Positions 14,866 through 39,185 of a DNA stretch of 64,000 nucleotides are shown here, piece after piece (positions within the stretch are counted from its first letter, which is position 1; each line of letters opens with the position of its first letter). The position numbers and the translations under genes were made by a program. Source of the stretch: an uncultured candidatus Porisulfidus sp. GTDB lineage: Bacteria > Pseudomonadota > Gammaproteobacteria > Poriferisulfidales > Poriferisulfidaceae. Under the pieces are notes generated by a model, which was not told where the DNA came from, searched no databases, and saw only the letters and a list, made by a program, of their open reading frames with translations. The stretch covers positions 1,107,893 through 1,171,892 of the forward strand of contig OZ244883.1 in assembly GCA_965221375.1 (NCBI GenBank), written 5' to 3'.

Positions 14866-14951
14866 GGAGCCAAGCAGTCCAAAATTTTGCTAAGTACAAT
14901 GGGAGAAAGGCGGCAAACACCTTATTTAACTGCCATTATAGTCAAATCACC

Positions 14952-15326
14952 ATGCGTTTCGCAGAAGATCGCGCCCCGGCAGATTTTGTGATTCAGTCCT
15001 GCTCTTCGGACGGACTCATCATCAATGATCAACGCCATACGGAAAGCGTGTTGCTTCTGCCCGCCCAGCCCTTGCAGGTCTGGCCGGCCCAGGCGGACAC
15101 GCTGTTGACTCTGCAGCACTTTTCATCCGTTCTTGCCTGCCAGCCTGAATTGCTCCTTCTCGGCACCGGCCCTACCCTGAAATTGCCGGACCCGGAAATT
15201 TATGGAACCCTGCTGGAGCAAAAAATCGGTTTGGAGGCCATGACCACCGCCGCCGCCTGCCGCACCTACAACCTGCTCGCCCAAGATGGCCGAAAAGTCG
15301 CCGCCGGCCTCATCTTGCCGGCCTGA
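14952..15326 (+). CDS. Mth938-like / DUF498 family small protein
   Basis: 124 aa; LLLGTGPTLKLP...LEQKIGLEAMTTAAACRTYNLLAQDGRKVAAGLIL matches my memory of the Mth938-like fold family consensus. Confidence 0.55.
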   Translation: MRFAEDRAPADFVIQSCSSDGLIINDQRHTESVLLLPAQPLQVWPAQADTLLTLQHFSSVLACQPELLLLGTGPTLKLPDPEIYGTLLEQKIGLEAMTTAAACRTYNLLAQDGRKVAAGLILPA

Positions 15327-19506: not shown

Positions 19507-20046
19507 ATGGATGTCGCGATGACTTATGACACGGATGACGATCACGCCACATTTGAAAAAGCCATGGAAGACGTGGCGCCGCTTGGCCAGCGTTCTAAAT
19601 CCGCTCGCTCAGGACACCCTCTCAAAGCGCCTCCGGTCACATCCAAACCGAGTTTCTCTTCACCCGGCCTGCAGGTTGATTTACGCCGCGTTTCACCCAT
19701 TGCAGGGGATTTGATACTGGACTGGAAACGCGCTGGGCTGCTCAACAAGGAGTACCATAAATTGTGCACCGGGCGGCTGACGCCCTCACCCAAAGAATTC
19801 GACCTGCATGGACTGCATATGCACGAAGTCGTGGAACAAATCCACCAGGCAATCTTCGAAACCCACCAGGCGCGGCGACACTCGTTGTGCCTGGTGCATG
19901 GCAAAGGCCTGCGGTCGGGTACAGGCGACTCGCTGGCCAAAGGCGTCGTGGTCGCCGTACTACGCACGCATCCCGAAGTGATGGGCTTTCATAGCGTGCC
20001 GCGCAATACCGGGGCCGTGAATGTCCTGCTGCGGAGACCACGATGA
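19507..20046 (+). CDS. Smr-domain protein (SmrA-like)
   Basis: 179 aa; C-terminal Smr domain DLHGLHMHEVVEQIHQ...LCLVHGKGLRSG; N-terminus low-complexity. Stop overlaps the moeA start (ATGA). Confidence 0.75.
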   Translation: MDVAMTYDTDDDHATFEKAMEDVAPLGQRSKSARSGHPLKAPPVTSKPSFSSPGLQVDLRRVSPIAGDLILDWKRAGLLNKEYHKLCTGRLTPSPKEFDLHGLHMHEVVEQIHQAIFETHQARRHSLCLVHGKGLRSGTGDSLAKGVVVAVLRTHPEVMGFHSVPRNTGAVNVLLRRPR

Positions 20047-21308
20047 AACAGACTTCCCCGGCAGCCAGCTGCATGGACGATTTTGATGCGCAATCGATTT
20101 TGCCCGAACAAGCGCATGCCCATATTCAAGCCTCGGTACAACCTGTCGGTGACACCGAAAAGATCCCGATTGGAGACGCACTCGATCGTATCCTCGCCGT
20201 GGAGGTGCATTCGGGAATTGATGTGCCCGGTGATGTCAATTCAGCCATGGACGGGTACGCCTTGCGTGGGCAGGATCTACCGGAACAATCACCGGCCTCC
20301 TTCAAACTGATCGGTTCCTCCTTTGCAGGACATCCTTTTGAAAGCCCCGTAGGCCAAGGCGAGTGCGTGCGCATTATGACGGGCGGCATCATGCCGGACG
20401 AGACCGATACGGTGGTCATCCAAGAGCGAGTGCGTGTGATCGATCCCGAGACCATAGAAATTCCTGCCACGGAGTCGGCAGGTCAAAACGTTCGCGGCGC
20501 GGGTGAAGATATTGCCGCCGGTCATGTAATTCTCCCTCAGGGACGCCAATTGACACCTGCAGACCTCGGATTGCTGGCCTCCACCGGGATTACCCATGTC
20601 GAAGTGAATCGACGACTGCGCGTGGCGTTCTTTTCTACCGGCGATGAGCTCCGCGAAATTGGAGAACCGCTGGATAAAGGATGCATCTACAACAGCAATC
20701 GCTACACCCTGCGAGGCATGCTGCAGAGGCTGCATGTAGAACCACTTGACCTCGGAACAGTCCCGGACCGACGTGAGGCCGTCGCAGAGACTCTGCATCA
20801 GGCGGTCGAGCAAGCCGATATGGTTATCACCTCGGGTGGTGTATCCGTGGGCGAGGCCGATTATGTCACGGACGTCTTGGAAGAATTGGGCCAAGTTAAA
20901 TTCTGGAAAGTCGCCATCAAACCAGGACGACCTTTGACCTTTGGGTGGCTTGGATCGGCTTGTTTTTTTGGACTACCGGGAAATCCCGTGTCCGTGATGG
21001 TGACGTTTTACTTGTTTGTGCGCCCTGCTTTGTTGCGCATGATGGGAGCGCAGGAATCTGCCCCACTATCACTGACCGTGCCTGTCTCGACGCCTTTGCG
21101 GAAGCGTCCCGGAAGAGTCGAGTACCAGCGAGGCATCCTCAGCCGTGATGCTGAAGGGAATTACACAGTCGCGCGCACCGGAGCTCAAGGCTCCGGCATC
21201 TTGACCTCTATGAGTCAAGCCAATTGCTTTATCGTCTTATCTCTGGAACAGGATAACGTTGATGTGGGAACGAAAGTCGAAGTGATTCCTTTCGACAGTA
21301 TCGCTTAA
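20043..21308 (+). CDS. moeA: molybdopterin molybdotransferase MoeA
   Basis: 421 aa; DVPGDVNSAMDGYALRG, MoeA/gephyrin-E core GGVSVGEADY; the first ~10 aa may be an extension (alternative start MDDFD). Confidence 0.88.
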   Translation: MKQTSPAASCMDDFDAQSILPEQAHAHIQASVQPVGDTEKIPIGDALDRILAVEVHSGIDVPGDVNSAMDGYALRGQDLPEQSPASFKLIGSSFAGHPFESPVGQGECVRIMTGGIMPDETDTVVIQERVRVIDPETIEIPATESAGQNVRGAGEDIAAGHVILPQGRQLTPADLGLLASTGITHVEVNRRLRVAFFSTGDELREIGEPLDKGCIYNSNRYTLRGMLQRLHVEPLDLGTVPDRREAVAETLHQAVEQADMVITSGGVSVGEADYVTDVLEELGQVKFWKVAIKPGRPLTFGWLGSACFFGLPGNPVSVMVTFYLFVRPALLRMMGAQESAPLSLTVPVSTPLRKRPGRVEYQRGILSRDAEGNYTVARTGAQGSGILTSMSQANCFIVLSLEQDNVDVGTKVEVIPFDSIA

Positions 21309-21318: not shown

Positions 21319-21765
21319 TCATCCGGGGGTATTGTTCTTGACCCACCGGTGGCTGCCATCCTCAAGTTCTTCGCGTTTCCAAAAAGGCGCATGAGATTTT
21401 AATTCTTCCATAATCAGACGATTGCTTTCATAAGCCGCCTTGCGGTGCGCCGCCCATGTCGCAACCAGCACAATCGAATCGCCAGGCTGCAGATCTCCGA
21501 CACGGTGTCGCAATAATACGGCTCCCAGATCATATTGTTGCTGGACTTGAGCAACCATTTCTTCCAGATAGGACTGCGTCATTTTGGAGTAGTGATCCAA
21601 AAACATAGACCGCACCGTATCGCCCTCGTTATGGTCGCGCATCGTGCCGACGAAAACCGCCATGGCCCCGCATTCCGCAGCCAAATGACTGTGTTTTTTC
21701 TGAAAATCATGAATTTCTTGCCACACTTCAAGAAGTTCTTCGACCAGCTGGATATCTGCAATCAT
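21319..21765 (-). CDS. moaE: molybdopterin synthase catalytic subunit MoaE
   Basis: 148 aa; VGTMRDHNEGDTV ... HAPFWKRE; MoaE family. No moaD ORF of at least 60 aa adjacent. Confidence 0.85.
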   Translation of the reverse strand: MIADIQLVEELLEVWQEIHDFQKKHSHLAAECGAMAVFVGTMRDHNEGDTVRSMFLDHYSKMTQSYLEEMVAQVQQQYDLGAVLLRHRVGDLQPGDSIVLVATWAAHRKAAYESNRLIMEELKSHAPFWKREELEDGSHRWVKNNTPG

Positions 21766-21828: not shown

Positions 21829-23058
21829 TCAGGAGCTCAATTTTTGACGGACCTCGCTGCGTCCGAGTTCAGGCTTCTGAAAATGGCGCAGGAGCGCCGA
21901 TGGCCCCTGTGCTTGAAACTCTTCGAGTGAAGGCCCCTTGTACTGGCAGTAGGACGTGCTGGTTTCGTGAATTTCCAATTCTTCCAGAGCCGGCAAATAA
22001 TCAATCAATCGCTCCCATATCCATGCGGCCAGGAATTCGGTACTGGAGCGCCATGCCAATTCCGGCGCCGCATAGTTGAGCGTATGATGATCCAAGGCGC
22101 GGATGACACGTGCATCGATGATGTGCTTGAGGATACCGTAATCCATCACAAAGCCATGGGCGGGATCGATGCGGTCATGAATCTTGAAATGCGCCGCATA
22201 GTGCCCCCCATGAAGATTGGCGCATGATCCGGGATGATCCGTGATGAAATGCGCTGCATCGAAGCCTCGCTCCTTGACAACGGTTGCCCGTGGCCCGTCA
22301 CCGCAGAATCGGTCGTCTTGTCCGGGGATTTCCCGCAACGACGTCTGCAGCGCCTGACACAATCGTTGTGTGTCCTCCAAACTTCGGGTCCGCAACCATA
22401 CCCGGTCGTCCAACGGCTCCAGTTTCTGGAGGTTGACACCGTGCTTATCCAGCAACCACTGACATAAGGCATCAAACTCTTGACTGGCCGGTGCTTGGAA
22501 AAAAATGTAACCCGCCTGAGGTGACGCACAGCACGTCACCACCACCGCTACGTAGCGGTCGCGGTCTTCGTCGGATAATTCAGCAAACTCCACCGGGGTA
22601 ATGGCTTCCTGATTGGATCGTTTCAATACGTTGCGGGCAACCATCCGATGGCTTCCGCCGGCGATGGAGTATTCCTGGCGAAACACAAAACCCAACGGCT
22701 GCAGATGTTGCTGCATCCACAAAAGCGCATCAAGGCTGCGAATTTCCCCCGGAATCACTTGCCAGACCTCGTCTTCATCCAAACGGCCTGCCGTTCGGGC
22801 CGCTCCCAAAACAATACGTCCGTCGTGATGGTTTGGATCGGAGGCGTGCGGGTAATCCTCAGGATTTTCTTCCTGATCTGCCTTGTGCGCCGGAACCAAC
22901 GTATCCAGCATCACACCGTGGCGCAGAGCATATTCCTGCAGTGTCAAGCCGCAACATGCGAGCAAATGCTCGTCCAAAATTTCAATATCTGTCTGGCATT
23001 CGGGGCATTTCATAAGCACAAATCCGCAGGGGACGCCTTTCGTTTCATTGTACGGCAA
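21829..23058 (-). CDS. fusion protein: N-terminal uncharacterised domain (Cys-rich zinc-ribbon-like start) + C-terminal 6-pyruvoyl-tetrahydropterin synthase (PTPS/QueD-fold) domain
   Basis: 409 aa. The last ~125 aa (FDAAHFITDHPGSCANLHGGHYAAHFKIH...LDHHTLNYAAPELAWRSSTEFLAAWIWERL) carry the PTPS/QueD signature (His triad, LDHxxLN). The first ~270 aa start MKCPECQTDIEILDEHLLACCG, a family I do not recognise. Lies at the edge of the H4MPT gene block. Confidence 0.6.
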   Translation of the reverse strand: MPYNETKGVPCGFVLMKCPECQTDIEILDEHLLACCGLTLQEYALRHGVMLDTLVPAHKADQEENPEDYPHASDPNHHDGRIVLGAARTAGRLDEDEVWQVIPGEIRSLDALLWMQQHLQPLGFVFRQEYSIAGGSHRMVARNVLKRSNQEAITPVEFAELSDEDRDRYVAVVVTCCASPQAGYIFFQAPASQEFDALCQWLLDKHGVNLQKLEPLDDRVWLRTRSLEDTQRLCQALQTSLREIPGQDDRFCGDGPRATVVKERGFDAAHFITDHPGSCANLHGGHYAAHFKIHDRIDPAHGFVMDYGILKHIIDARVIRALDHHTLNYAAPELAWRSSTEFLAAWIWERLIDYLPALEELEIHETSTSYCQYKGPSLEEFQAQGPSALLRHFQKPELGRSEVRQKLSS

Positions 23059-23075
23059 AGGTCACCGGCAGACCT

Positions 23076-23107
23076 AAAAAAAAGCGCCGCATAAGCGGCG
23101 CTTTTTT
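23076..23107 (-). terminator. rho-independent terminator after fae (bidirectional-type hairpin)
   Basis: A8 - AGCGCCGC - ATAA - GCGGCGCT - T6 read directly; sits 19 nt downstream of the fae stop on the minus strand. Confidence 0.8.
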
Positions 23108-23125
23108 CCGAACGAATCGGCGGGC

Positions 23126-23650
23126 TTAGAAGCCTTGGAAGGGGTGATCGGTGCTGTCTTTGGCAGAAAGCACATCATCAACCGAAGGAGTTCCAGCAAC
23201 AGCATTTGCAATCGCCTGCTTGGTCGCCTTGTAGTTGTTTTCATAAATCGCCGCATCGCTGGCTGCTTCCCAGTGAATGAAGACACCTACGCACACGTAG
23301 AGATTGTCACATTCATCTTTGGGGATAACGCCTGCTTCCACGGAATCCGCGACTGCCATGGCCACAGCTTTCTGTGCGGGGCCAAACATTTGCACGGCTT
23401 GCTTTGCGCCTTTGATCGTCACCTTGTTGTACATCATGGTGTCGGGTTTGCACGGCAGGTTCGGGCCAACCACAGCCAGCAGGGTGGTGAAACCGTCCTT
23501 GTTGTTCACCAAGCCATTGCAGAATGCGGTTTCCGCCGCGGAGCCGCGCGGTCCAATGATGAGATCGATGTGGGCGATTTCGGCCATAGTCCCGGAGGGA
23601 TCATTGTCATTGACCAAAGCCTCGCCAACGAGAACTTTATCGATTGCCAT
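23126..23650 (-). CDS. fae: formaldehyde-activating enzyme (5,6,7,8-tetrahydromethanopterin hydro-lyase)
   Basis: 174 aa from ATG 23650 (GGAG 8 nt upstream): [16 protein letters not shown]...[44 protein letters not shown]...[17 protein letters not shown]...IHWEA, collinear in my memory with Methylobacterium Fae. The ORF-track start at 23680 adds a spurious 10-aa extension. Confidence 0.9.
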
Positions 23651-23670
23651 TATTAAAACTCCAAAAATTT

Positions 23671-23684
23671 TTGTTTGCAAACAA
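23671..23684. promoter_or_regulatory. perfect 14-bp palindrome TTGTTTGCAAACAA in the fae 5' region
   Basis: Read directly, 21-34 nt upstream of the fae ATG and 29 nt downstream of the orf7-like stop; flanked by AAAAATTTTT. Confidence 0.4.
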
Positions 23685-23712
23685 CGGGCACGCAGTTTTA
23701 AGACGCCCCCGA

Positions 23713-24630
23713 TTAGATTCGAGAATCACTTCCCGAGGTCAGGACATCGCTGTCCCGATCATCGCTCCACCCCGCAAGCCGCGCCGCAAACACTCCTGCG
23801 AGTGTTAAATCCGCCGTGGTTCCGGGGCTGATACCGGAGCTTTTCCACAAAGCATCCAGTTCCAGGAGCCGTGACTGATAAGTTTGCGGAACTTTTGCAT
23901 CGCAAAACTTATCTGCCAGCGACTTAATCTTACCACTAATTGCGTCCGCCGTAGCCGCACCATGCACACGGGCGACATGAGAATCCGGATAATGCGCCAG
24001 CATATGCAGAAACGTTCCGACCATCGCCCAGCGCGGGTCTTTCCAACGTTGGCACAAGTTTTCCCACTGCGGCTGCGCTTGATTTAGAACAAGTTCGAAG
24101 CCGTTGCAGTACTCGGCTGCGATGCGATCGCGGGACGACGCCAACTCCATCGCGGCGCGCAAAGAAATCCTGGGCGCGTCCTGAATATCCGCTTTTTCAA
24201 CCTGACCCAGGCCCACCGGCTGCATGAGTCGGATGGCGCGATAAACATCGCGTGCATCGGTCACTGTGGTCGCCTCCAATACCTGGGGAAGACATTTCGA
24301 CCACTTTTCTTCGGCACAGCGGTAATACGCCTCCACCATGGGAGCAACCAGCAGCAATATGCCGATATTCGTATTGCAGCCCACGACTTCCCAGGTCGCT
24401 TGCGCGGCTTGCCACACACGCTTCCCCAAAGTCCAGTTCGGCCGAGTCACCAACTCTGCGGAGGCTTGGGCACTTTGCCGAAAATCTCGACATGTTTTAC
24501 CGTGCCCTTCTCCATGCAAGCCGACATTCCCTGGTTTTAGCGACTGCAAATCAAGCAAACAGGCGTAAAGGTATTGACGTGAAACAAACCGCCACGTCGG
24601 TTCATAGTGAGCACGCAGATAACGAAACAC
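23713..24630 (-). CDS. triphosphoribosyl-dephospho-CoA synthase (CitG/MdcB)-like protein of the H4MPT cluster (Orf7-like)
   Basis: 305 aa; family assignment is from the overall CitG-like pattern and its fixed position between fae and the RimK-like ATP-grasp gene in methylotroph H4MPT islands. Weaker than neighbouring calls. Confidence 0.55.
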
Positions 24631-24641
24631 TGCAGAAAACT

Positions 24642-25544
24642 TTACGCTTCCTTATGACAATGCGCCAAGAAACCTTCAATCAACAATTCGGAAATATCCT
24701 GCTGACTGACTTGCTGGAGACCCCGCCATGCCGGAATGCTATTGATTTCGGTCACCCAAAACGCACCCTCCCGATCCTGCATCAGGTCGACTCCCGCATA
24801 GGACATGTCCACGGCCGATGTCGCGCGCTGGGCCAAATCCGACAACTGACTATCCAGAGCGGCAGGATAGCCTTGACCTCCATTGGCGATATTGCTGATC
24901 CAATCATTCCCTTCTCTTCGCATCGCTGCCTGTGCCCGGCCTTTCACCACCAACACCCGCCAGTCGCAACTGCCCGAAGCTGCCGACTCAATGTATTCCT
25001 GCAGATAGTACATGCCGTGATACAAATCATAATTCGGATGCGGCGTCTCACGGGTCAACCGCATCAATCCTTTGCCTTGAGATCCAAAGATAGGTTTCGC
25101 AACAATACTCTCGTGAGTCTCAAACCAATGCGCCAGGAAGGCGCGAGTTTGGCGAAGACTTCGGGCCACGAAAGTGCGCGGAGTCGGAATGCCGTGGTGG
25201 GCGAATAAAAAACTGGCGCGTACTTTGTCTACACTGCGCTCAATCGCACCGGCATCGTTGTAGACACCAATGCCCTTGGCCTCCAAGGCGTGAAGCACAT
25301 CCAAATAAAAAATAACCTCTTCAAGAGTGCCTCCCGGCACTTCTCGAACAAAAACACCTGCCGGCAATTGACCGTCGAAACCGGGCAAGTCAATGTGCGC
25401 GCCTTTGTGATCAATCTCGATACGGCACTCGCGCAAACTGACAAAACAGCTGTCCCGATCATGTCGCTTGAGCGCCTGCTGAAGTTGTTGCCCGTGCCAG
25501 CCCGGATGGTCCGTTACGATGGCGTAACGCCCAGGTGCGGTCAT
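24642..25544 (-). CDS. RimK-like ATP-grasp ligase, tetrahydromethanopterin:alpha-L-glutamate ligase-like (Orf5/MptN-like)
   Basis: 300 aa; ATP-grasp features IVAKPIFGSQGKGLMRL, DWRVLVVKGRAQAAMRR, WISNIANGG, GVDLMQD...WVTEINSIP; overlaps the mch start by 4 nt. Confidence 0.75.
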   Translation of the reverse strand: MTAPGRYAIVTDHPGWHGQQLQQALKRHDRDSCFVSLRECRIEIDHKGAHIDLPGFDGQLPAGVFVREVPGGTLEEVIFYLDVLHALEAKGIGVYNDAGAIERSVDKVRASFLFAHHGIPTPRTFVARSLRQTRAFLAHWFETHESIVAKPIFGSQGKGLMRLTRETPHPNYDLYHGMYYLQEYIESAASGSCDWRVLVVKGRAQAAMRREGNDWISNIANGGQGYPAALDSQLSDLAQRATSAVDMSYAGVDLMQDREGAFWVTEINSIPAWRGLQQVSQQDISELLIEGFLAHCHKEA

Positions 25545-26500
25545 TCTTCAAACGACTGCTTCAAAAGATCAGCATCCAAGGCTCCGGCCGCAAAGGAGCG
25601 GCCCGTCTGAATATTACTGACCAGTACCCGTGCCGGACTGAATAACATCGGATCGATTTTGAAAAAGTCGTATTCGTAATCTTTGAATATCGTGGCAAAA
25701 GGCTTGCCGTAATCGCGCGAAGTACTGCTCGGTAATTGTGTTGCTAAACGCTCCGCTTCCTCATCGCTCGATTGGACAAACAGTTTGACCTGTCCGCCGA
25801 ACAAAATCGCATCGTTGGTGCGACCCATCATTTTCACCATATCGGAACTATTCAGGGGTGGGACCGGCGCACTGCCGATGCCATCGATGACCTGTTGCAG
25901 ATCAAACCCCAATACATGCGTTTTATGCAGCGCCACTTCCAATACCCGACCCACAACCTGCACCGTGCCCGCGAGACTGGTGGTAGGTGTCAAAATCAAT
26001 GTGAGATTTTCGGGTTCGACATTACAGTCTCGACAGATTTTCTGGCGCACGGAAAGCGGCGGCACCCGGTCCACTTCCATCACCAGAGTCGTTGTGTCGT
26101 GCTCATCCCGATAGTCGAGCTCACTAAACAACTCTTCACGCTGCGCCAGGCAACGCGCCGGACCCGAGCCCAAGGCATGAAATTTTTCTTCCGAATCGTT
26201 CAAGCTCCAGCCGGCATACTGGCTCGCCAGGCAAGCCAATACCGGATGCTGGGTATGTATGTGAATGGACAACGGCCAATCATCCGGACGATCATAGGTG
26301 AAGGTCGCCTGTCCCAACCCGCCTAGACAAATTTCAGTAATTTGACGACCGGCTTCAATACCGCCCACCGTCTCAATGCCCGCATCAATAATCCGTACAC
26401 CTTCTTCCGTCCGGGATTTTTTGATGCGTAAATTTTCGGCATCCTCCACTAAATGACACACCAATGGATCGGCCAGTTGATTAATGCTAATGCGCGACAT
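25541..26500 (-). CDS. mch: methenyltetrahydromethanopterin cyclohydrolase
   Basis: About 319 aa from MSRISINQLADPLV; RIIDAGIETVGGIEAGRQITEICLGGLG matches Mch. The ORF-track start at 26533 adds 11 aa and lengthens the overlap with the upstream gene. Confidence 0.88.
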   Translation of the reverse strand: MSRISINQLADPLVCHLVEDAENLRIKKSRTEEGVRIIDAGIETVGGIEAGRQITEICLGGLGQATFTYDRPDDWPLSIHIHTQHPVLACLASQYAGWSLNDSEEKFHALGSGPARCLAQREELFSELDYRDEHDTTTLVMEVDRVPPLSVRQKICRDCNVEPENLTLILTPTTSLAGTVQVVGRVLEVALHKTHVLGFDLQQVIDGIGSAPVPPLNSSDMVKMMGRTNDAILFGGQVKLFVQSSDEEAERLATQLPSSTSRDYGKPFATIFKDYEYDFFKIDPMLFSPARVLVSNIQTGRSFAAGALDADLLKQSFEE

Positions 26501-27647
26501 GGACAACCTCTTGTGGTAGCTGTGCGGAGTCAAAATGTGCGGATAATTTTTCCAATACGTCGGCGCGCAAATCTTCTAATTCGGCAAGCACCGTGTCGGC
26601 ATCACTCCCGCGGCTGTGTACCGTGCATAAGGGATTCCCTTTTGACACTCTGGTTTGGGCGTGCGGCCGGTCTGCGGCCGCATCCGGCCACTGACAATGT
26701 GCGGAAATAATGACTTCTTGGGGCGCATAGACAACCCGCATCCCGTTCACGCCGCCTGCGTCAGGCACCAACACATCCCGCGCGATGTTCTTATCAAGAC
26801 ACGTTTGGATATGTGCTTGCATATAACCGTGCAGAAAACGTTCCTGATACAGCTCGCATGTTGCAGTTAAGCGGGGATTGAGATCAAGCATGAAGATACG
26901 GTGATCAGAAGTGAGAACAAAATCAAAGCCACAAAGGCCAAGCAAGCCCAAATCACACGTCAGATTGTCAGCAATCCATTGTACTTGCTCCAGCGCTTCG
27001 GGCGGCAATTCCACCGACCCAATGGCGCCGCCCCACATATAAGGCGTTGCCGCCTCTTCCGCCGCCAGCAGGCGGCTGACCCCAATCAATTCCGCCTCGG
27101 TCCCACCCGCCAAAAACAAGGCTGAATGTACGTCTCCCTCGCAATAACGCTGCCAATAAATCTCTTGATCGCGCCCCTCATACGAATCTGCCGGATGCAC
27201 ATGCGCTCCACCCGAACGCCGGTTACGTTTGACTAACCAACCCGATTGTGACTCGGGTGCAGTGTGACGCATCTCCGGCATCGGTATCTGCAAAACATCG
27301 CAGCGCGAAGTCAGTGATCGTGCATCCGTGCACTGGCGCAGGACTTCCTCGGAATTTCCAAGCACGTTGACATGCCTTTTCAGTTGAGTCAAGAGTCCCG
27401 GGTCTGCTTCGAAGCCCGAGCCGTAGATCAGCCGGTCGCCCGATTGGCTGCGCTCGCTGACCTGCCGCACAATTTCCGCAGTGAATTGCCCTTCCCGCAA
27501 CGGCACGACACGGCACTCATCGGCCTGCAGATCTTCGTCTGCAAACCCATCCAAAGCAATCACTGGACAATGCAGGTGCGCGGCCGCCTGGGCATGCGCC
27601 CGCGCTGAAGCCGACAGCACAAACAGGCGGCTTATTTGGCTGCGCAC
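26487..27647 (-). CDS. ATP-grasp superfamily protein of H4MPT-linked C1 clusters (OrfY/COG2232-like)
   Basis: 386 aa; ATP-grasp-like central region (LVKRNRRSGGAHVH, GLCGFDFVLTSDHRIFMLDLNPR). Position between mch and mtdB is typical for methylotroph H4MPT islands. Family assignment is moderate. Confidence 0.55.
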   Translation of the reverse strand: MRSQISRLFVLSASARAHAQAAAHLHCPVIALDGFADEDLQADECRVVPLREGQFTAEIVRQVSERSQSGDRLIYGSGFEADPGLLTQLKRHVNVLGNSEEVLRQCTDARSLTSRCDVLQIPMPEMRHTAPESQSGWLVKRNRRSGGAHVHPADSYEGRDQEIYWQRYCEGDVHSALFLAGGTEAELIGVSRLLAAEEAATPYMWGGAIGSVELPPEALEQVQWIADNLTCDLGLLGLCGFDFVLTSDHRIFMLDLNPRLTATCELYQERFLHGYMQAHIQTCLDKNIARDVLVPDAGGVNGMRVVYAPQEVIISAHCQWPDAAADRPHAQTRVSKGNPLCTVHSRGSDADTVLAELEDLRADVLEKLSAHFDSAQLPQEVVHVAH

Positions 27648-28531
27648 TGGCGCGCTACTTCAAACGCATGTTCGAAATGGTAATACACCGGCTCGTCCGT
27701 TTCGCGCATCTGTCGCAACAAAGTCTGTTGCGTCTGGTACTTCACATTGCCAATCGCCAAAGCGCCGATACCGACAGCGCCACTGCCGGAGTCCTCGATG
27801 GGTTTCGCATCATCCATCACCCCCAGGCCATGAATTCCCGAAGGCGGAACCGCATTGACATCCGCCGCCACTTTCAGACGTGGTGCACTTGCAATCTGTT
27901 CTTTTGACATCAATTGAATGCCTGCCGCGGCAGATGCAAAAATCACATCCGTCTCATTGAGCAAGGTATCCAACTGATCGTTGGCCTCACCGTCAATCGA
28001 CGTGCCGGCTTCGTATTTCTGATTGCATAGCTGCGCCGCCTGCTCACTTTTTTCTTTCTTGCGCCCCAAAATGGTGACGTGTGCGCCTGCGTCTGCGGCA
28101 ATGACCGCGGCGGCGGAGCCGACCGGTCCAGTGCCCCCGAGAGCCAAAATGCGCTGGTCTGAAAGTTCTGTGCCATGTACATCGCGAAGTGATTTTTCGA
28201 CTTTTGCGACCATGGCCGCTGCCGTCGTAAATGCCCCACTGGGATCCGCGAAAGCGGAAATCACAAAAGGCGGAACCATGGATTTCTGGCAGATTTCCAG
28301 CATTTCCATGGCCTGATGCATGTCACGACCGCCAATAAACAGCCCGGTCCGGCGCACGCCGCTGGGCCCGCGTGAAAAAATTGCATCTTCCACCAGTCCT
28401 TTGGTGTCTTCCACTTCCACCTGGATATACGGAATGCAGGCATCCCAGCCTGCGTCGTAAGCCATGTTGGCGTCAAAGGGGCTCAGATTCTTCGCAGAAG
28501 TGAGCATATGCAGTAAATATTTTTTGTCCAT
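27632..28531 (-). CDS. mtdB: NAD(P)-dependent methylene-tetrahydromethanopterin dehydrogenase
   Basis: 299 aa; GGRDM, LGGTGPVGSAAAVIAADAGAHVTILGRK Rossmann segment, overall collinear with MtdA/MtdB. Confidence 0.85.
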   Translation of the reverse strand: MDKKYLLHMLTSAKNLSPFDANMAYDAGWDACIPYIQVEVEDTKGLVEDAIFSRGPSGVRRTGLFIGGRDMHQAMEMLEICQKSMVPPFVISAFADPSGAFTTAAAMVAKVEKSLRDVHGTELSDQRILALGGTGPVGSAAAVIAADAGAHVTILGRKKEKSEQAAQLCNQKYEAGTSIDGEANDQLDTLLNETDVIFASAAAGIQLMSKEQIASAPRLKVAADVNAVPPSGIHGLGVMDDAKPIEDSGSGAVGIGALAIGNVKYQTQQTLLRQMRETDEPVYYHFEHAFEVARQCAAK

Positions 28532-28563
28532 AAAAAATGTATTCGAAAATTGAAGAGGTAATT

Positions 28564-29550
28564 TTAAGAAATTTGGCGCTGCAGCGGAATCCCTTCCGCC
28601 ATCTCACCTGTCATGACCTGGTGCCCATGGTTGCAGGCACGCACAACATGAACCAACACGTCCGGTTCCGCAAGCTGCAATTCGCGGGAAAGTTTTTGCG
28701 CCTGGGTTTCGCTCTCGGTCAACACAAACCCCGTGGGGCCCCACGAACTTTGTCCTATGCCGGCGAAGCCCAACTGTTCTGCTTTATTCAAACTCGAAGC
28801 AATGGCCGGATGGGTGAAGCGGCCTCCTTGAACCGGAGCGAAATGATCTCCGACCGTCTTCTGCAACTCACCGATGCCCTGCGCAAAGGGTTCGAAATTC
28901 CCCTCAAACAACGCCGGTAAAACACGCATCAAGGTCAACCGACATAGGTGGGCGGCTTTTGCTTCCGGAAGTTTCGGCAAATCATCAAAAGCGGTCCGCT
29001 CCGCGGTTCCCGACAATCCTTCCTCGCCACTTTTTGCTTGCAGCAATACAATCCGCCAATGCTCGGGAAAAGTCTGGCGCACGATAATGGGAGGCAATTT
29101 GGCAGGCTCGCCCCGGCCCCCATCCAGCAAAAATCCTCCTTGCTGAAACGCACCCCATCCAATGCCCGACCTGGATCCTCGGCCCAGTTCAATGCTGATA
29201 TCCCGAAGGCTCATCTCAATGTCAAACAGATATTTAATCGCTGCACCCACGGCCAATGCCAACTGCGTCCCGGATCCTAGTCCCACATGCCCCGGAATGG
29301 CTTCATGCATATGAATTTGGACCGCACCCGGACAATGATAATGCTGCATGACTCGACGCGCATAGTCACAGGCTCGCTGCGCATCCGGGCCGGTCGCTGA
29401 GAATTCGCCGGCAGGCTCGCAGGACAAGTGCGTGCAAAGTTCGCTCAGTGCTACCCCCATGCTTCCGAAATGCCGCCCCAGTCCCCCATGCATATCCAGA
29501 AAACCAAGGTGTAGTCGACCTTGAGTCTTGATTTGAACCGCTTTATTCAT
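28564..29550 (-). CDS. mptG: beta-ribofuranosylaminobenzene 5'-phosphate synthase (H4MPT biosynthesis), GHMP-kinase fold
   Basis: 328 aa; GHMP motif IPGHVGLGSGTQLALAVGAA; fixed member of the H4MPT island. Confidence 0.75.
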   Translation of the reverse strand: MNKAVQIKTQGRLHLGFLDMHGGLGRHFGSMGVALSELCTHLSCEPAGEFSATGPDAQRACDYARRVMQHYHCPGAVQIHMHEAIPGHVGLGSGTQLALAVGAAIKYLFDIEMSLRDISIELGRGSRSGIGWGAFQQGGFLLDGGRGEPAKLPPIIVRQTFPEHWRIVLLQAKSGEEGLSGTAERTAFDDLPKLPEAKAAHLCRLTLMRVLPALFEGNFEPFAQGIGELQKTVGDHFAPVQGGRFTHPAIASSLNKAEQLGFAGIGQSSWGPTGFVLTESETQAQKLSRELQLAEPDVLVHVVRACNHGHQVMTGEMAEGIPLQRQIS

Positions 29551-29667: not shown

Positions 29668-32600
29668 TCAAGCCACCCAAGCCCGAGCATTTCGAAATAA
29701 CCGCAGCCAAGGTGCTTCGTCGCTCCATTCCGAGGGATGCCAAGAGTGCTGCACAGTTCGAAAAACACGTTCGGGATGCGGCATCATAATCGTAAAACGC
29801 CCATCCGTATTGGTGAAAGCCGTCAAACCGCCCGCAGACCCATTGGGGTTGTGGGGGTAGTGCTCCGTCGCCTCGCCGTGCGCATCAACGAACCGCAGGC
29901 AAGCCGACACATTTAGGCGTTGCTTTTCGTCTGAAAAATCCGCACACCCTTCTCCGTGAGCCACCACAATGGGTACGCGGCTCCCTGCCATGCCCTGGAG
30001 CAGAATTGACGGAGATTCAAGAATCTCAACCTGACTCAATCGGGCTTCGAACTGTTCACTGGAATTTTTCACGAACCGCGGCCAGCACTCGGCACCCGGA
30101 ATAATATCCTTCAACTGGGACATCATCTGGCAACCATTGCACACCCCCAGCGCGAAAACATCAGGCCGCTCAAAAAACCTCTGAAATAAGTCACGCAATT
30201 TATTGTGAAACAATATATTTTTAGCCCACCCTCCTCCAGCCCCCAAGACGTCACCGTAGGAAAATCCGCCACAGGCCGCCAAACCGACCGTATCTTCAAG
30301 CAGCTCCGGAGAGGCCTGTAGATCGTTCATACATACGTCACGACATTCAAAACCAGCCTGGGCGAAAGCGGCCGCCATCTCAACCTGGCCATTGACACCC
30401 TGCTCCCGAAGAATGGCCACAACCGGCTTGGCTCCCACACCGACGTGAAGTGCTGCGGGGTTTTCGCAAGGATCAAAAGAGACTTCGGCAAATAAAGGCG
30501 GTCGACCCCACGTGCGACTCTCCTCATATTCGCTCCGCGCACACTCTTCATTGTCCCGACGACGCGCGATTTCATAACTGGTGCGGCTCCACAATTGATG
30601 CAGGTCCGTAAGCGACCATGTACGCACGTGGTGTCCTTGGCAATGCAAACTCAATTCCGGAGACTGCTGTATCTCCCCAATTCGCTCGCAAACAAGCCCT
30701 ACCTGTTCAAAACGACGGCAAATCGTCTCTACCTCCGCATCGCGCACTTGCACCACTGCCCCGATCTCTTCGTTGAATAAATAGCTCAAGACATCCTTTT
30801 CATCAGTGGGAATATCCAGGCTCAAACCCAATCGAGCGGCAAAGGCGCATTCGCACAGGCAGGCCCACAAACCTCCATCGGAGCGATCGTGATACGCCAG
30901 TAATTGATCCTCTTCCAGCAATGCCTGAACCAGATCAAAAAAAGCGGCCAATTGTTGCGCGTCTTCAACATCGGGAGTATCGGACCCCACTTGGGCATAG
31001 GCTTGCGCCAGAGCGGATCCCCCTAGGCGGCGCTGCTCATCCAGCGCAATGAGCAACAGACTGGTACTTTCCTCGTCGCGCAATTGAGGCGTAATATGGC
31101 GACGTACATGGTCGACAGGTGCGAATGCCGAGATCACCAACGAAACAGGCGAAAGCACGCGCTGATCGCCCCAAGCTGCTTGCATGGACAAGGAATCTTT
31201 GCCTACCGGAATGACAATCCCCAACTGGGGACAAAACTCCATGCCGACAGTCTCCACCGCGGCGCGCAATCCCTGAAGAGACTCGGTGTCGGAACTGGCG
31301 GCCATCCAGTTGGCCGACAAACAGATTCTTTGACGATTCCGAACTTTGACACTTGCCATATTGGTCAGGGCTTCCGCGACCGCCATGCGGGCGGATGCTG
31401 CCGGCTGGTGGATAGCAAGCATCGGACGCTCTCCCATGGACATGGCCTCTCCGGAAAACCCTTGAAAATCACTGGCGGTGACCGCCGCATCAGCGACCGG
31501 GACCTGCCACGGTCCAATCATCTGATCGCGAACGGTCAGTCCTCCGACCGAGCGATCGCCGATGGTAATCAAAAATGCCTTCGAGCCGACACTGGGCATC
31601 GCCAGTACCCGATCGACTGCTTCCTCGAAAACAATACCGACGCTATCGAAGGGGGTAGCTGTTTTTGTGGTGGACTTGATATCCAGATGAAGATTCGCCG
31701 ATTCTCCGAATAAAACAGACAACGGCATATCAATCACCACATTTTTCAGCATGCGGTCGGATAACCGCAGACGACCGGCGTCGGTCGCGTAGCCGACGAC
31801 CGCATAAGGACTGCGTTCGCGTTGGCAAATTTTCGCGAAATCGTCCAACGACTCGGGCCGAATCGCCAGCACATAACGCTCCTGCGCCTCATTGCACCAA
31901 ATTTCGCGTGGCGACATGCCGCTGTCGGCACAGGGAATATCCCGCAATTCCAGCTCAGCACCTCCCGGTTTTCCATCGACCAATTCCGGAATTGCGTTCG
32001 ATAACCCGCCCGCACCCACATCATGGATCGACAAGATCGGATTCTTTTCACCATGGGCCACACACTGCTCAATTACTTCCTGGGCTCTGCGCTGCATCTC
32101 CGGATTACTGCGCTGCACCGAGGCAAAATCCAGTTCTTCGTGGCTGGCCCCAGTATGCTGTGATGATGCCGCCCCTCCTCCCAGCCCAATCAGCATGGCC
32201 GGGCCTCCCAGCACAACAATCGCAGCCCCTTCGGGAATGGTTTGTTTGTGGATATGACCTGCTTGGATGCTGCCCAATCCGCCGGCAATCATGATTGGCT
32301 TGTGATAACCATAAGTACGTCTGCCTGAAGAGGACGGCACCTCCATCTCCAGTGTGCGGAAATAACCACTCAAGCACGGTCGGCCGAATTCGTTATTAAA
32401 GGATGCCGCACCGATAGGACCTTCAATCATGATGTCAAGCGGTCGCGCCATACGAGGAGAATGTCCCCGTTCCGGACGCTCCCACGGCTGTATCCAATTG
32501 GACAGGTTCAGATTAGACACTGTGAAACCGCATAACCCAGCCTTAGGTCTCCCACCACGGCCGCAAGCCGTCTCGTCACGAATTTCTCCCCCACTCCCGG

Positions 32601-33516
32601 TTGCTGCCCCCGGAAAAGGCGAAATGCCCGTGGGGTGGTTATGGGTCTCAACTTTAATCACGATGCCATATTCACCGTCTGACGATTTCCACAAGCGGCT
32701 CTCTGGGTCCACCGCCATGCGGCTGTAGCGGCCCGCCTGCATCACTGCCGCATTGTCTTGATAAGCCGACAGAACACCCTCCGGGGAAACCTCGAAGGTA
32801 TTGCGAATCATGTCAAACAAACTTCGCTCAATAGGCTTGCCGTCGATTGTCCAAGATGCGTTGAAAATCTTGTGGCGGCAATGTTCGGAATTGACTTGAG
32901 CAAACATCATCAGCTCTGCATCCGTTGGATATTTCCCTATTTTTTCATAGGCTTGATGCAAATAGGCAATATCCGCTTCAGATAAGGCCAAACCATAACG
33001 CGCATTCGCGTCACGCAAGATCGATACCCCATCATTCTGAAAATCAACGGTTTCAAGGGGCTGAGGCTCAGAGGACTGAAACAACTGAGCAATTTCCTTC
33101 ACATCCGCCAAAATGGTCTCGGTCATCGGATCGTGCAGCATGAGCAACAATTCCGGCTTCAGCCGTTCCACTCCTTCGATGCGATATTCAATGCCCCGCT
33201 CGATGCGCCTCACCGTTGTCAGGCCGCAAACACGAAAAATCTCTGTTGCTTTACTGGACCAGGGCGAAATCGTGCCCAGCCGCGGAATCGCAAAACATGG
33301 GGATCCGGAAGTTATTTCCTCACTCGCCGGAGCGTAATCAAGCAAAGCGCCCAATACGAGTTCTTCGCTTTGGGTGAAATCTGCGTCGCAATCTACAAAA
33401 TGATAGTACCGGGCACTGACAATAGTGCCGGAATGCTTTGCCGTAAGTCTCGCATTGAGTTTGCGGAGAAAACTACCGGACAGTGCCTGGCCGCCTGGAT
33501 AGATGCGTACGGGCAT
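29668..33516 (-). CDS. purL: phosphoribosylformylglycinamidine synthase (single-chain large PurL)
   Basis: 1282 aa; N-terminal domain, FGAM synthase PurM-like repeats, C-terminal class-I glutamine amidotransferase (GVCNGCQ). Confidence 0.93.
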   Translation of the reverse strand: MPVRIYPGGQALSGSFLRKLNARLTAKHSGTIVSARYYHFVDCDADFTQSEELVLGALLDYAPASEEITSGSPCFAIPRLGTISPWSSKATEIFRVCGLTTVRRIERGIEYRIEGVERLKPELLLMLHDPMTETILADVKEIAQLFQSSEPQPLETVDFQNDGVSILRDANARYGLALSEADIAYLHQAYEKIGKYPTDAELMMFAQVNSEHCRHKIFNASWTIDGKPIERSLFDMIRNTFEVSPEGVLSAYQDNAAVMQAGRYSRMAVDPESRLWKSSDGEYGIVIKVETHNHPTGISPFPGAATGSGGEIRDETACGRGGRPKAGLCGFTVSNLNLSNWIQPWERPERGHSPRMARPLDIMIEGPIGAASFNNEFGRPCLSGYFRTLEMEVPSSSGRRTYGYHKPIMIAGGLGSIQAGHIHKQTIPEGAAIVVLGGPAMLIGLGGGAASSQHTGASHEELDFASVQRSNPEMQRRAQEVIEQCVAHGEKNPILSIHDVGAGGLSNAIPELVDGKPGGAELELRDIPCADSGMSPREIWCNEAQERYVLAIRPESLDDFAKICQRERSPYAVVGYATDAGRLRLSDRMLKNVVIDMPLSVLFGESANLHLDIKSTTKTATPFDSVGIVFEEAVDRVLAMPSVGSKAFLITIGDRSVGGLTVRDQMIGPWQVPVADAAVTASDFQGFSGEAMSMGERPMLAIHQPAASARMAVAEALTNMASVKVRNRQRICLSANWMAASSDTESLQGLRAAVETVGMEFCPQLGIVIPVGKDSLSMQAAWGDQRVLSPVSLVISAFAPVDHVRRHITPQLRDEESTSLLLIALDEQRRLGGSALAQAYAQVGSDTPDVEDAQQLAAFFDLVQALLEEDQLLAYHDRSDGGLWACLCECAFAARLGLSLDIPTDEKDVLSYLFNEEIGAVVQVRDAEVETICRRFEQVGLVCERIGEIQQSPELSLHCQGHHVRTWSLTDLHQLWSRTSYEIARRRDNEECARSEYEESRTWGRPPLFAEVSFDPCENPAALHVGVGAKPVVAILREQGVNGQVEMAAAFAQAGFECRDVCMNDLQASPELLEDTVGLAACGGFSYGDVLGAGGGWAKNILFHNKLRDLFQRFFERPDVFALGVCNGCQMMSQLKDIIPGAECWPRFVKNSSEQFEARLSQVEILESPSILLQGMAGSRVPIVVAHGEGCADFSDEKQRLNVSACLRFVDAHGEATEHYPHNPNGSAGGLTAFTNTDGRFTIMMPHPERVFRTVQHSWHPSEWSDEAPWLRLFRNARAWVA

Positions 33517-33651: not shown

Positions 33652-34006
33652 TGGGGGTGACCCGGTTTCGACGGCGGTTACGGACTCCAAGGCGCATGCC
33701 GAGGCGGTAGCGACCTCGTAAAAAATGGCTGCAAAACATTAGTTGCCAACGACGACAACTACGCACTAGCGGCTTGATCCGCTAGTCATCCTTCCGGGAG
33801 ATGCTTGTGGATCCTGTTTGGATGTCGACTACACAAGCTCGCCTTGCAACCTGCCTGGAGTTGAAAGGTTAAACGAAACATCCAGACTGGCGATCATTAA
33901 GTCCTGTCCGTCGGGCGTTGATCGTAAGATAAAAGACGGTGCTAAGCATGTAGTGCCGAAGAGAAAGAACTGTTGGACGCGGGTTCGATTCCCGCCACCT
34001 CCACCA
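33652..34006 (+). ncRNA. ssrA: transfer-messenger RNA (tmRNA, SsrA)
   Basis: 5' GGGGGUGAC...UUCGACGG and 3' GGACGCGGGUUCGAUUCCCGCCACCUCCACCA form the tRNA-Ala-like acceptor/T-arm. Resume codon region GCAUGCCGAGG...; tag ORF GCC AAC GAC GAC AAC TAC GCA CTA GCG GCT TGA = ANDDNYALAA*. Collinear with E. coli ssrA. Confidence 0.93.
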
Positions 34007-34030
34007 ATCACCGGCTTCAAGAATTTCCAT

Positions 34031-34066
34031 AAGGCCTCGTAAAAAAGCTTTGCGAGGCCTTATCTT
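34031..34066 (+). terminator. rho-independent terminator after ssrA
   Basis: AAGGCCTCG - loop TAAAAAAGCTTTG - CGAGGCCTT followed by ATCTT, read directly. Confidence 0.7.
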
Positions 34067-34188
34067 ATGTGACTAGCGCGCAATATAGGCTTAAGGCATC
34101 CTTCTATATTTTGCATTTTAATAATATAAATGGTAATATTCTTCCATGTTATAATTTTTAAACATATAAGACCCAATTTGGGGTCCTT

Positions 34189-35346
34189 ATGTCAAAATCT
34201 AGTCAAATGGAACGAAGTGGCCACTTTCGGCATGTGCCTGCGGGGTATAGAGCATTCTTTCCTGCACTACTGCCACCCACGCCCCCTATTGCGATTGAGG
34301 GTAGCCTGCAACAGCTCCTTTCGAAGGCTGATCAAACCATGAGCGTGTTAAATGTGGTTTTTAGTGTTCTGCCTAACCCCGACCAATTAGTAGGAATGTT
34401 CATGCAGAAAGAGGCCTTGCTCAGCTCGCAGATTGAGGGTACCCAATCGTCCCTGATAGATGTGCTGGGAGTCGAAGAAGGTAATCCTCCAACAGCAGAT
34501 GTGGGAGAGGTCTTGAACTACCTGGCCGCCATGCGTCATGGCATGCAGCGTCTGCAAAAAAACGAACTTCCTCTGTGTGCTCGCCTGCTCAAAGAATTAC
34601 ATCTGAAATTGATGGCAGAGACAAGAGGAGGCGGCCCTCATCTCACTCCAGGTGAATTTCGCACTATGCAGAACTGGATTGGCGGCAGTAGCCCCGCCAA
34701 CGCTCGCTTTGTGCCACCCCCGGCCGATGAACTGGGCGTAATGTTCGGAGAGCTGGAGAAGTATTTCCATACCGAGAATGATACGCCGCCATTGGTGCAG
34801 TGTGCCCTGATTCACTACCAGTTTGAAACCCTGCATCCCTTCAATGATGGCAACGGGCGCTTGGGACGTTTGTTAATCAGCCTGTTTTTGTTAAGCAGAG
34901 GTGTGTTGGATCAGCCCATGCTGTATCTCAGCGCCTACCTGAAAATTCATCAACAAGAATATTACGATCGCCTGCAACAAGTGCGCACTGACGGTAGTTA
35001 TGAGAAATGGTTGACCTTTTTCTTGGAAGGTATTGTGGCTGTTAGTGATATGGTCATTGACACTACCCGCCGGATTCAAGCATTAGAGCGCAGTGATACA
35101 GACGCGATGACCACTGCCGGAACTGGCAGCGAAAGCATTGCCTTTATTCGTGCCCTGCTACAGCAGCCTGTTGTTTATGTAAGGGATATTGAAAGGCACT
35201 TGAACATCTCTTATGCCAAGGCCAATCAAATGGTGGCGTTGGCCGAAAAGATGGATATCCTGAAGCAAATCAGTCATGGCAAACGAAACCGGAAATACGG
35301 TTATCAAAAATATATTGAAATTTTGTCTGAAGGAACCGAAATCTAA
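34189..35346 (+). CDS. Fic-family protein (AMPylator-type, class II with N-terminal inhibitory motif) with C-terminal winged-helix domain
   Basis: 385 aa; Fic motif HPFNDGNGRLGRLL; inhibitory-helix-like SSQIEGTQ ((S/T)xxxE(G/N)) upstream of the active site; C-terminal ~70 aa HTH-like. Preceded by an AT-rich 120-bp spacer. Start could be ATG 34207. Confidence 0.85.
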   Translation: MSKSSQMERSGHFRHVPAGYRAFFPALLPPTPPIAIEGSLQQLLSKADQTMSVLNVVFSVLPNPDQLVGMFMQKEALLSSQIEGTQSSLIDVLGVEEGNPPTADVGEVLNYLAAMRHGMQRLQKNELPLCARLLKELHLKLMAETRGGGPHLTPGEFRTMQNWIGGSSPANARFVPPPADELGVMFGELEKYFHTENDTPPLVQCALIHYQFETLHPFNDGNGRLGRLLISLFLLSRGVLDQPMLYLSAYLKIHQQEYYDRLQQVRTDGSYEKWLTFFLEGIVAVSDMVIDTTRRIQALERSDTDAMTTAGTGSESIAFIRALLQQPVVYVRDIERHLNISYAKANQMVALAEKMDILKQISHGKRNRKYGYQKYIEILSEGTEI

Positions 35347-35542
35347 TGCCAAGGCCGCACTTTATATTCCTGGATAAATTACCCCTGTTTCCAAGTGCTT
35401 CACAGAATTGTCATAAAACATAAAACACATATAATAAATGAGCCGTCAACTTATCTGGTTACAGCGCTAGGAGAGTTTCTGCAGCAACTTAATTAGCTTC
35501 CTGCAGGCATAAACGTCAGGTGCTTTATCCAAGAGGTCCCTT

Positions 35543-38074: not shown

Positions 38075-38142
38075 CCACGGGTATGCTGCTGGCGACAGCA
38101 GAGACACAGCTTTGATTTGGATGTATGCTCGGCAGAGCATGA

Positions 38143-39117: not shown

Positions 39118-39185
39118 CGGAATCGGGTCCAAGCGATTTGGCGTCAGGTCTCTGGCGGAATCCTACCTTGCCCGTGTCTATGTAA

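Follow-up and report, generated by a model that had tools for sequence, protein, structure and literature searches.

An eight-gene formaldehyde oxidation block lies between purL and moaE

We analysed a 64-kb stretch of contig OZ244883.1 (the window hereafter means this whole stretch), in which a block of genes at 21829-29550 belongs to the formaldehyde oxidation pathway linked to tetrahydromethanopterin (H4MPT). The list of open reading frames (ORFs), combined with Pfam and NCBIfam profile searches, showed eight co-directional ORFs on the minus strand with short gaps or overlaps, transcribed in the order mptG, an mtdB-type gene, orfY, mch, orf5, orf7, fae and a PTPS/QueD fusion gene. The overlaps of 16 nt between mtdB and orfY and of 4 nt between mch and orf5 are certain; orfY and mch overlap by 14 or 47 nt, as set by the choice of the mch start codon (ATG at 26500 or TTG at 26533). 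The family matches of the eight genes gave E-values from 1e-9 to 1e-125, which excludes chance, and all eight reached or exceeded the curated family-level cut-offs. Moreover, none of the eight reading frames is interrupted, and the residues invariant in their families are in place. A first-pass annotation of this DNA had described eight co-directional, partly overlapping genes here and placed each in a family; the ORF list agreed with the layout, and the profile matches upheld all eight assignments.

Three of the genes encode enzymes of formaldehyde oxidation itself. The formaldehyde-activating enzyme gene fae (23126-23650) matched Fae PF08714 with 215 bits and TIGR03126 with 230 bits against a cut-off of 118. 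The mechanical ORF extends to 23680; the start is most likely the ATG at 23650, since the resulting 174 aa equal the size of the fae ORF in the closest relative, locus L015. The protein is 68% identical over 164 residues to the crystallised Fae of M. extorquens (1Y5Y) and 98% identical to Fae of L015. The methenyl-H4MPT cyclohydrolase gene mch (25541-26533) matched MCH PF02289 with 417 bits and the equivalog model TIGR03120 with 412 bits against a cut-off of 229, with profile positions 1-313 of 313 aligned, and its product matched archaeal Mch structures (PDB 1QLM, E 1e-80). The third gene (27632-28531), located between mptG and orfY inside the H4MPT island, as in about 30 loci, encodes an MtdB-type NAD(P)-dependent methylene-H4MPT dehydrogenase with an Mpt_N domain (PF09176, 116.5 bits) and a Rossmann/NAD-binding domain. 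It shares 31% identity with the MtdA structures 6TLK and 1LU9 (E 2e-35) and 84-87% with Porisulfidus orthologues; in the NCBIfam scan, no curated model matched that would assign it to the MtdB or the MtdC subclass. The best matches of fae, mch and mtdB thus lay among Fae, Mch and MtdA structures and not in unrelated families, in agreement with the first-pass annotation.

The remaining island genes are related to cofactor synthesis. The product of mptG (28564-29550) has the GHMP fold (GHMP_kinases_N and GHMP_kinases_C) and matched the subfamily-level model TIGR00144 of beta-ribofuranosylaminobenzene 5'-phosphate (beta-RFAP) synthases with 143.7 bits (cut-off 113.5); the archaeal equivalog model NF040726 gave 174 bits, under its cut-off of 328. 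By these scores the protein is a member of the beta-RFAP synthase family that fails strict equivalog status. The orfY/myfA-like gene (26487-27647) encodes an ATP-grasp protein (ATP-grasp_3 PF02655, E 3e-12) and keeps a conserved place between mtdB and mch; it is the fastest-evolving gene of the block, with 47-51% identity to Porisulfidus loci and 22-34% to other lineages. The orf5/myfB-like gene (24642-25544), conserved in place between mch and orf7, encodes a RimK-family alpha-L-glutamate ligase that matched TIGR00768 with 158.7 bits (cut-off 143.4) and MptN_Meth NF040720 with 198 bits, under the cut-off of 350. Finally, orf7 (23713-24630), conserved in place between orf5 and fae, belongs to the CitG-like triphosphoribosyl-transferase family (CitG PF01874, 202 bits). 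CitG itself was ruled out for orf7, as TIGR03125 gave 28 bits against a cut-off of 272.

An intrinsic terminator was identified 3' of fae at 23076-23107 on the minus strand, consisting of an A run, the stem GCGCCGC-TTAT-GCGGCGC and eight T. With its 7-bp GC stem, it has a predicted folding energy of -30.7 kcal/mol (z -3.4), and none of 200 shuffles folded as well. Similar motifs with an A run, a GC stem and a T run were present after fae at at least 14 of 22 non-redundant loci. A consensus promoter/terminator scanner returned site counts at chance level and missed the fae terminator. These features indicate that the seven genes from mptG to fae are probably cotranscribed as a single compact operon, which this strong terminator closes; the fusion gene would be a separate transcription unit, because this terminator parts it from fae. 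A comparison of the sequences upstream of mptG, fae and the fusion gene in 21-36 non-redundant loci gave no operator-like motif in common; the words enriched there were confined to terminators, ribosome-binding sites, starts of coding regions and stretches specific to a clade.

The block is conserved and under purifying selection in reduced genomes

The block is flanked by purL (29668-33516) on one side and by moaE (21319-21765) and moeA (20043-21308) on the other, and the surrounding genes are gammaproteobacterial housekeeping genes (surE-pcm-nlpD, clpA, aconitase, fumC, purB, thrC, hom, leuA, guaAB and tmRNA). Relatives were gathered with Mch as the query and one genome per species, which yielded 57 loci. 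The closest Mch matches, with 70-76% identity, came from metagenome-assembled genomes (MAGs) of Candidatus Porisulfidus, Gammaproteobacteria or Chromatiales. The organisms most closely related are Candidatus Porisulfidus sponge symbionts, whose genomes measure 1.4-1.8 Mb; Porisulfidus is a known gammaproteobacterial sponge symbiont that has been used as an outgroup to SUP05 sulfur oxidisers. A protein identical to the window's fusion protein (P0001, 100%, 394 aa in the public record) is known from a single 1,637,768-bp contig. Our literature search on formaldehyde metabolism in Porisulfidus or AqS1 found nothing.

The arrangement purL-block-moaE-moeA is common to the window and the closest, Porisulfidus-type loci, and six related reduced genomes have kept the block at this chromosomal position. 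About 40 gammaproteobacterial loci show the order mptG-mtdB-orfY-mch-orf5-orf7-fae, among them Candidatus Thiodiazotropha and MAGs labelled Thiotrichales, Thiothrix, Methylococcaceae and Burkholderiales. In L015 (14833-16670), a D12-class adenine methyltransferase gene and a NotI-like restriction endonuclease gene lie between the fusion gene and moaE, and the window has neither. In a Thiotrichales MAG (L011, about 6500-6800), an N run followed by tandem AGAAACTTAAGCT lies just upstream of mptG; these tandem copies may be an assembly artefact or a repeat.

We calculated ratios of nonsynonymous to synonymous substitution rates (dN/dS) against L015 and obtained 0.011 for fae, 0.038 for mtdB and 0.062 for mch, with 0.079 for purL as a comparison; dS is near saturation for most genes, which makes these values rough. 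The ratios indicate purifying selection on the genes of the block.

The eighth gene encodes a zinc-finger/LAGLIDADG/QueD fusion protein

The first-pass annotation had named the gene after fae a PTPS fusion. The fusion is real, and it proved to be neither Orf17 nor a plain PTPS, a point that the annotation had left unexplained. Its mechanical ORF covers 21829-23058; with the start at the ATG at 23013, the gene (21829-23013) encodes 394 aa, and PTPS PF01242 (97 bits) matched the C-terminal third only. As far as its residues reveal, the protein is composed of a Ros/MucR-type zinc finger, a catalytically dead LAGLIDADG domain and a QueD-like T-fold.

The zinc finger occupies residues 1-40 (22894-23013, minus strand) and has the pattern CxxC-x9-H-x3-C, in which all 114 family members have C6, H16 and C20 and 113 have C3. 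The N-terminal 241 residues of the window protein gave no PF05443 match and nothing useful in Pfam at E up to 10. A profile search of PDB aligned 45 residues with Ros87 (2JSP), weakly (E 0.15). The assignment is based mainly on family-profile matches: a profile of the fusion N-terminus matched bona fide multi-repeat ROS_MUCR proteins, and phage relatives matched PF05443 at E 4e-5 to 8e-3.

The LAGLIDADG-like double domain spans residues about 63-238 (22300-22827, minus strand) and has lost both catalytic acidic residues, with RTAGRL and CCASPQ at the positions where the phage relatives have LLGDxY and WYMDDG. The fusion protein therefore has no catalytic Asp or Glu at the ends of its two LAGLIDADG-like helices, unlike the homing endonucleases of PF03161. 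The T-fold spans residues about 245-360 (21934-22281, minus strand) and has C-x3-H-G-G-H instead of C-x3-H-G-H. The catalytic Cys, Asp-His and Glu do not vary, nor do two of the zinc histidines, and an invariant glycine replaces the third histidine of the QueD/PTPS set; the QueD equivalog model gave 67.7 bits, under its cut-off of 89.25. In the window copy, the zinc finger has a charge of -5 and the endonuclease-like part of -7. The two N-terminal modules are acidic in the bacterial clade (median isoelectric point (pI) of 5.3 for the zinc finger and 6.0 for the endonuclease-like part), whereas those of the phage relatives are basic (pI 8.7-9.4).

We also considered Orf17, a HisA/HisF family protein (PMC8141765), as the identity of the fusion gene. 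This was ruled out, as the fusion protein had no PF00977 match and only a PTPS match, and a separate PF00977 gene adjoins the fusion gene in L058 (Thioalbus denitrificans) and L059.

The fusion gene neighbours fae in bacteria and has relatives in phage-like contigs

The family has more than 560 homologues of about 400-410 aa, none with an annotation other than QueD or PTPS; its carriers are hundreds of Gammaproteobacteria from the environment and, among cultured species, at least Thioalbus denitrificans. In the literature, we found no published description of the family and no paper linking a PTPS gene with the methanopterin island. Reverse look-ups of family members placed the bacterial fusion gene next to fae in four of four cases. 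The gene is absent from five Porisulfidus loci (L001-L005) and from the Methylococcaceae and Burkholderiales loci. L001-L005 keep mptG to fae and the moaE-moeA flank, and L001 has about 1.6 kb (about 13380-14970) in place of the fusion gene.

A profile of the N-terminal 240 residues recovered only 70 representatives among 1.84 billion proteins. Among the matches, proteins of 443-493 aa gave Pfam hits to ROS_MUCR (weak), to LAGLIDADG_2 (80-105 bits) and to PTPS. Six such relatives (P0261, P0266, P0268, P0270, P0272 and P0288) were followed up; two were traced to contigs, and both contigs look phage-like. Their fusion genes, at 10001-11332 of L060 and 3263-4681 of L062, encode intact LAGLIDADG motifs and a basic N-terminal part. 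Neighbouring genes on these contigs encode an intein-bearing DNA polymerase A, a primase, a dUTPase, a GTP cyclohydrolase (PF02649), a Vut_1 transporter and a pyrimidine-dimer excision enzyme; the intein in the DNA polymerase A of L060 contains LAGLIDADG_3. The GTP cyclohydrolase and the Vut_1 transporter suggest a link to the 7-deazaguanine pathway.

The six phage-type fusions have the same domain order as the window protein, match the N-terminal profile of its family at E 1e-10 to 1e-30 and share 25-29% identity with it overall, and five of the six carry an H-G-G-R-Y motif. In contrast to the window protein, which has lost both LAGLIDADG motifs (LLGDxY and WYMDDG), all six have kept them, and those traced to contigs are set among replication and 7-deazaguanine-type genes and not beside fae as in the bacterial clade. 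No full-length fusion match was found in deposited phage genomes. Taken together, these likenesses indicate that the fusion gene shares ancestry with zinc-finger/LAGLIDADG/QueD fusions of uncultured phages.

The block covers part of the pathway, with a probable role in formaldehyde oxidation or detoxification

The full pathway comprises about nineteen genes in five islands, and mch-orf5-orf7-fae-orf17 is a published sub-order (PMC3615186). The first-pass annotation had recognised the archaeal-like one-carbon (C1) module known from methylotrophs, with which the gene order agrees (PMC3615186), and had called the block complete. We scanned window ORFs of at least 150 aa over the 64 kb for fhcCDAB, and those scanned gave no match to FTR, FTR_C, GXGXG or an Fhc-type amidohydrolase. 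In the same window, no orf9, orf17, orf19-22, pabB, dmrA or afpA was found, nor were there mxaF/xoxF, PQQ (pyrroloquinoline quinone), pmo/mmo, methylamine oxidation or assimilation genes. The word complete therefore does not apply, because the Fhc genes, the other cofactor genes and the genes of methanol or methane oxidation were not found in the window. The block covers three of the four catalytic steps (Fae, MtdB type and Mch), together with one or two methanopterin genes and two methylofuran genes.

The label of methanopterin biosynthesis, also given in the first-pass annotation, holds for mptG and perhaps for orf7. It does not hold for OrfY and Orf5: since 2021 these have been identified as MyfA and MyfB, methylofuran glutamate ligases that are required for the polyglutamate tail of methylofuran and not for methanopterin (PMC8141765). 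Methylofuran is the formyl carrier used by the Fhc complex (PMC8141765).

Based on these family assignments, we propose the following route. Fae would condense formaldehyde with (dephospho)tetrahydromethanopterin, the MtdB-type dehydrogenase would oxidise the resulting methylene-H4MPT to methenyl-H4MPT with NAD(P), and Mch would hydrolyse the latter to formyl-H4MPT. MptG would make the aminobenzene-ribose precursor in the first committed step of (dephospho)methanopterin biosynthesis, and the CitG-like Orf7 would act in cofactor biosynthesis at an undefined step. MyfA (OrfY) and MyfB (Orf5) would build the methylofuran polyglutamate tail, with Orf5 elongating the chain. Production of formate would need fhcCDAB and further cofactor genes elsewhere in the genome of about 1.64 Mb.

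The role of this pathway in non-methylotrophs has been called enigmatic, and partial clusters occur that suggest recent loss in Nitrosococcus (PMC5020050). The same pathway is present in thiotrophic lucinid symbionts, Candidatus Thiodiazotropha (PMC6712303). The organism is probably a reduced-genome relative of sulfur-oxidising sponge symbionts, and for this reason the block would most likely serve to oxidise or detoxify formaldehyde, perhaps with C1 compounds as a source of energy, and would less likely support growth as a classical methylotroph. The claim of the first-pass annotation that the block fixes the lifestyle was thus too strong, given the enigmatic role outside methylotrophs (PMC5020050) and the sulfur-oxidising relatives, and its option of a methylotroph found no methanol or methane oxidation gene in the 64-kb window.

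We weighed whether the organism could nevertheless be a true methylotroph or methanotroph, with methanol, methane or methylamine as its growth substrate, which is the stronger half of the reading in the first-pass annotation. In methylotrophs, the core of formaldehyde oxidation consists of Fae, MtdB and Mch, and related thiotrophic symbionts have a PQQ methanol dehydrogenase alongside this pathway (PMC6712303). However, mxaF/xoxF, PQQ, pmo/mmo and assimilation genes are all absent from the window, the closest relatives live in sponges as sulfur-oxidising symbionts and have genomes of 1.4-1.8 Mb, and the pathway is widespread among non-methylotrophs (PMC5020050). We consider methylotrophic growth improbable. 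As judged from its gene content, the block shows that the organism handles H4MPT-bound formaldehyde, not that it is a methylotroph.

A second alternative is decay: a shrinking symbiont genome would have lost the pathway and kept this partial, decaying cluster as a relic. The window holds only part of the pathway, partial clusters suggesting recent loss have been reported in Nitrosococcus (PMC5020050), and close relatives are already without the eighth gene. Yet the eight frames are intact with their family-invariant residues, and selection acts on fae, mtdB and mch at least as strongly as on purL. The retention of the block at the same site in six related reduced genomes disfavours decay, which we regard as very improbable.

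The interpretation that we prefer, and hold to be likely, is that the block is a working copy of the bacterial 'archaeal-like' C1 island and that selection maintains it. Several points weigh against it. As given above, the dN/dS values are rough, owing to dS near saturation. The orthology of OrfY and Orf5 to the studied MyfA and MyfB is based on family and position and not on direct sequence comparison. The window contains no Fhc, other cofactor or methanol, methane or methylamine oxidation genes, so that the flux to formate is only predicted, and partial, apparently decaying clusters exist in other Gammaproteobacteria (PMC5020050). As for the eighth gene, the pathway does not need it, since five Porisulfidus loci and the Methylococcaceae and Burkholderiales loci do without it, and its T-fold is without the third zinc ligand, which makes catalysis uncertain.

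The block itself is a genuine, ordinary copy of a well-known island in a new host lineage. It adds the small-genome relatives of sulfur-oxidising sponge symbionts to the lineages that keep the methanopterin-linked formaldehyde pathway, and it bears on the open question of what non-methylotrophs use this pathway for. The strong selection that keeps these 7.7 kb in a genome of about 1.6 Mb suggests that formaldehyde or other C1 units are of importance in the sponge habitat.

Possible functions of the fusion protein

The fusion gene is a conserved, unstudied partner of fae that may mark a missing step or a control point in cofactor metabolism. We see an even chance that its product is an accessory enzyme, linked to the H4MPT pathway, that handles pterins. 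On this view the dead endonuclease module, which is conserved although its catalytic residues and positive charge are gone, would be reused as a scaffold or as a surface for interactions. This proposal is favoured because the N-terminal modules are acidic in the bacterial clade and no operator-like motif was found.

Alternatively, the protein could be a DNA-binding, pterin-responsive regulator of the island that acts through its zinc finger and LAGLIDADG fold, either as a 'trigger enzyme' like BirA or PutA or as a WhiA-like factor. Both N-terminal modules come from DNA-binding families and have been conserved after the loss of the nuclease residues, with zinc ligands that are invariant or nearly so. 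In addition, the gene forms a separate transcription unit beside fae, the most highly expressed gene of the pathway, and is dispensable for the pathway in other lineages. Nevertheless, the bacterial modules are acidic (pI 5.3 and 6.0, and charges of -5 and -7 in the window copy), unlike the basic modules of the phage relatives (pI 8.7-9.4), no operator-like motif is shared upstream of mptG, fae or the fusion gene, and the catalytic Cys, Asp-His and Glu of the T-fold are still invariant. A regulator of this kind therefore seems unlikely to us, and we return to the accessory enzyme as the preferred proposal.

More broadly, and only tentatively, the fusion may represent an undescribed protein class, a zinc-finger/LAGLIDADG homing endonuclease joined to a QueD-like pterin domain, akin to the fusions of uncultured phage contigs and domesticated by marine and sulfur-oxidising Gammaproteobacteria for the methanopterin/methylofuran island, as either a new pterin-processing enzyme or a pterin-sensing regulator. 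It seems to be a clear example of a homing endonuclease taken over for a cellular function, and it matters more for protein evolution than the block does.

A fuller island was observed at 16008-19741 of L059, from another gammaproteobacterium, with genes for a 4HFCP synthase (MfnB type), a DUF447 protein, a DUF6513 and pterin-binding-domain protein and a flavoprotein, and with a tyrosine-decarboxylase-like gene upstream. Beside the genes for the flavoprotein and the pterin-binding-domain protein, L059 has one for a stand-alone PTPS whose motif is C-E-N-L-H-G-H, and a sigma-54 activator gene comes next. The C-E-x-x-H-G-H motif is the signature of the PTPS-III type that forms 6-hydroxymethyl-dihydropterin. 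If this PTPS is of that type, the ordinary pterin branch may already be covered in L059, which would leave the step of the fusion protein open.

Other features of the window

After the tmRNA gene (33653-34006), the G+C content is lower over about 12 kb (0.46-0.52, against 0.54-0.58 upstream), and the gene and this stretch together span 33653-46000. The low-G+C stretch encodes Fic, a TonB-dependent receptor, TonB, ExbB, a di-haem cytochrome c peroxidase/MauG-like protein and two 140-aa ORFs. Neither a duplicate of the tmRNA 3' end nor an integrase was seen in this stretch, which may be an island. Further along, a HipA-like toxin kinase gene (55661-56920, minus strand; HipA_C, E 1e-50) adjoins a tRNA-adenosine-deaminase-like gene. 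Two ORFs, at 7-870 (plus strand, 287 aa) and 57547-58236 (minus strand, 229 aa), had no Pfam match at E 1e-5.

Comparison with known systems

The islands of Methylorubrum extorquens, Methylosinus trichosporium and Methylobacillus flagellatus have Fae, MtdB, Mch, mptG, orfY/myfA, orf5/myfB and orf7 in common with the window, as well as the sub-order mch-orf5-orf7-fae. In contrast to these methylotroph islands, the window has eight genes between purL and moaE, with fhcCDAB, orf9, orf17 and orf19-22 not nearby, and the gene after fae encodes the zinc-finger/LAGLIDADG/QueD fusion instead of the HisA/HisF-type Orf17.

The cluster of Thiodiazotropha (L006; PMC6712303) also belongs to a sulfur-oxidising gammaproteobacterial symbiont and has the same gene order, including the fusion gene after fae, with protein identities of 34-69%. 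It differs in having fhcCDAB-like genes divergently upstream and ATP-grasp, hydantoinase-like, pabB and amino-acid-kinase-like genes downstream, all of which are not in the window. A methanol dehydrogenase has likewise been reported for Thiodiazotropha (PMC6712303), whereas the window has none.

Compared with the QueD/PTPS family (COG0720, PF01242), the window T-fold has H-G-G where the family has H-G-H, and a 240-residue module is fused to its N-terminal side. The transcription factor WhiA, which has a degenerate LAGLIDADG domain as its basis, shares only 12% sequence identity with the window fusion. WhiA has a C-terminal helix-turn-helix and no T-fold, whereas the window fusion is acidic and combines its LAGLIDADG-like part with a Ros/MucR-type zinc finger and a QueD domain.

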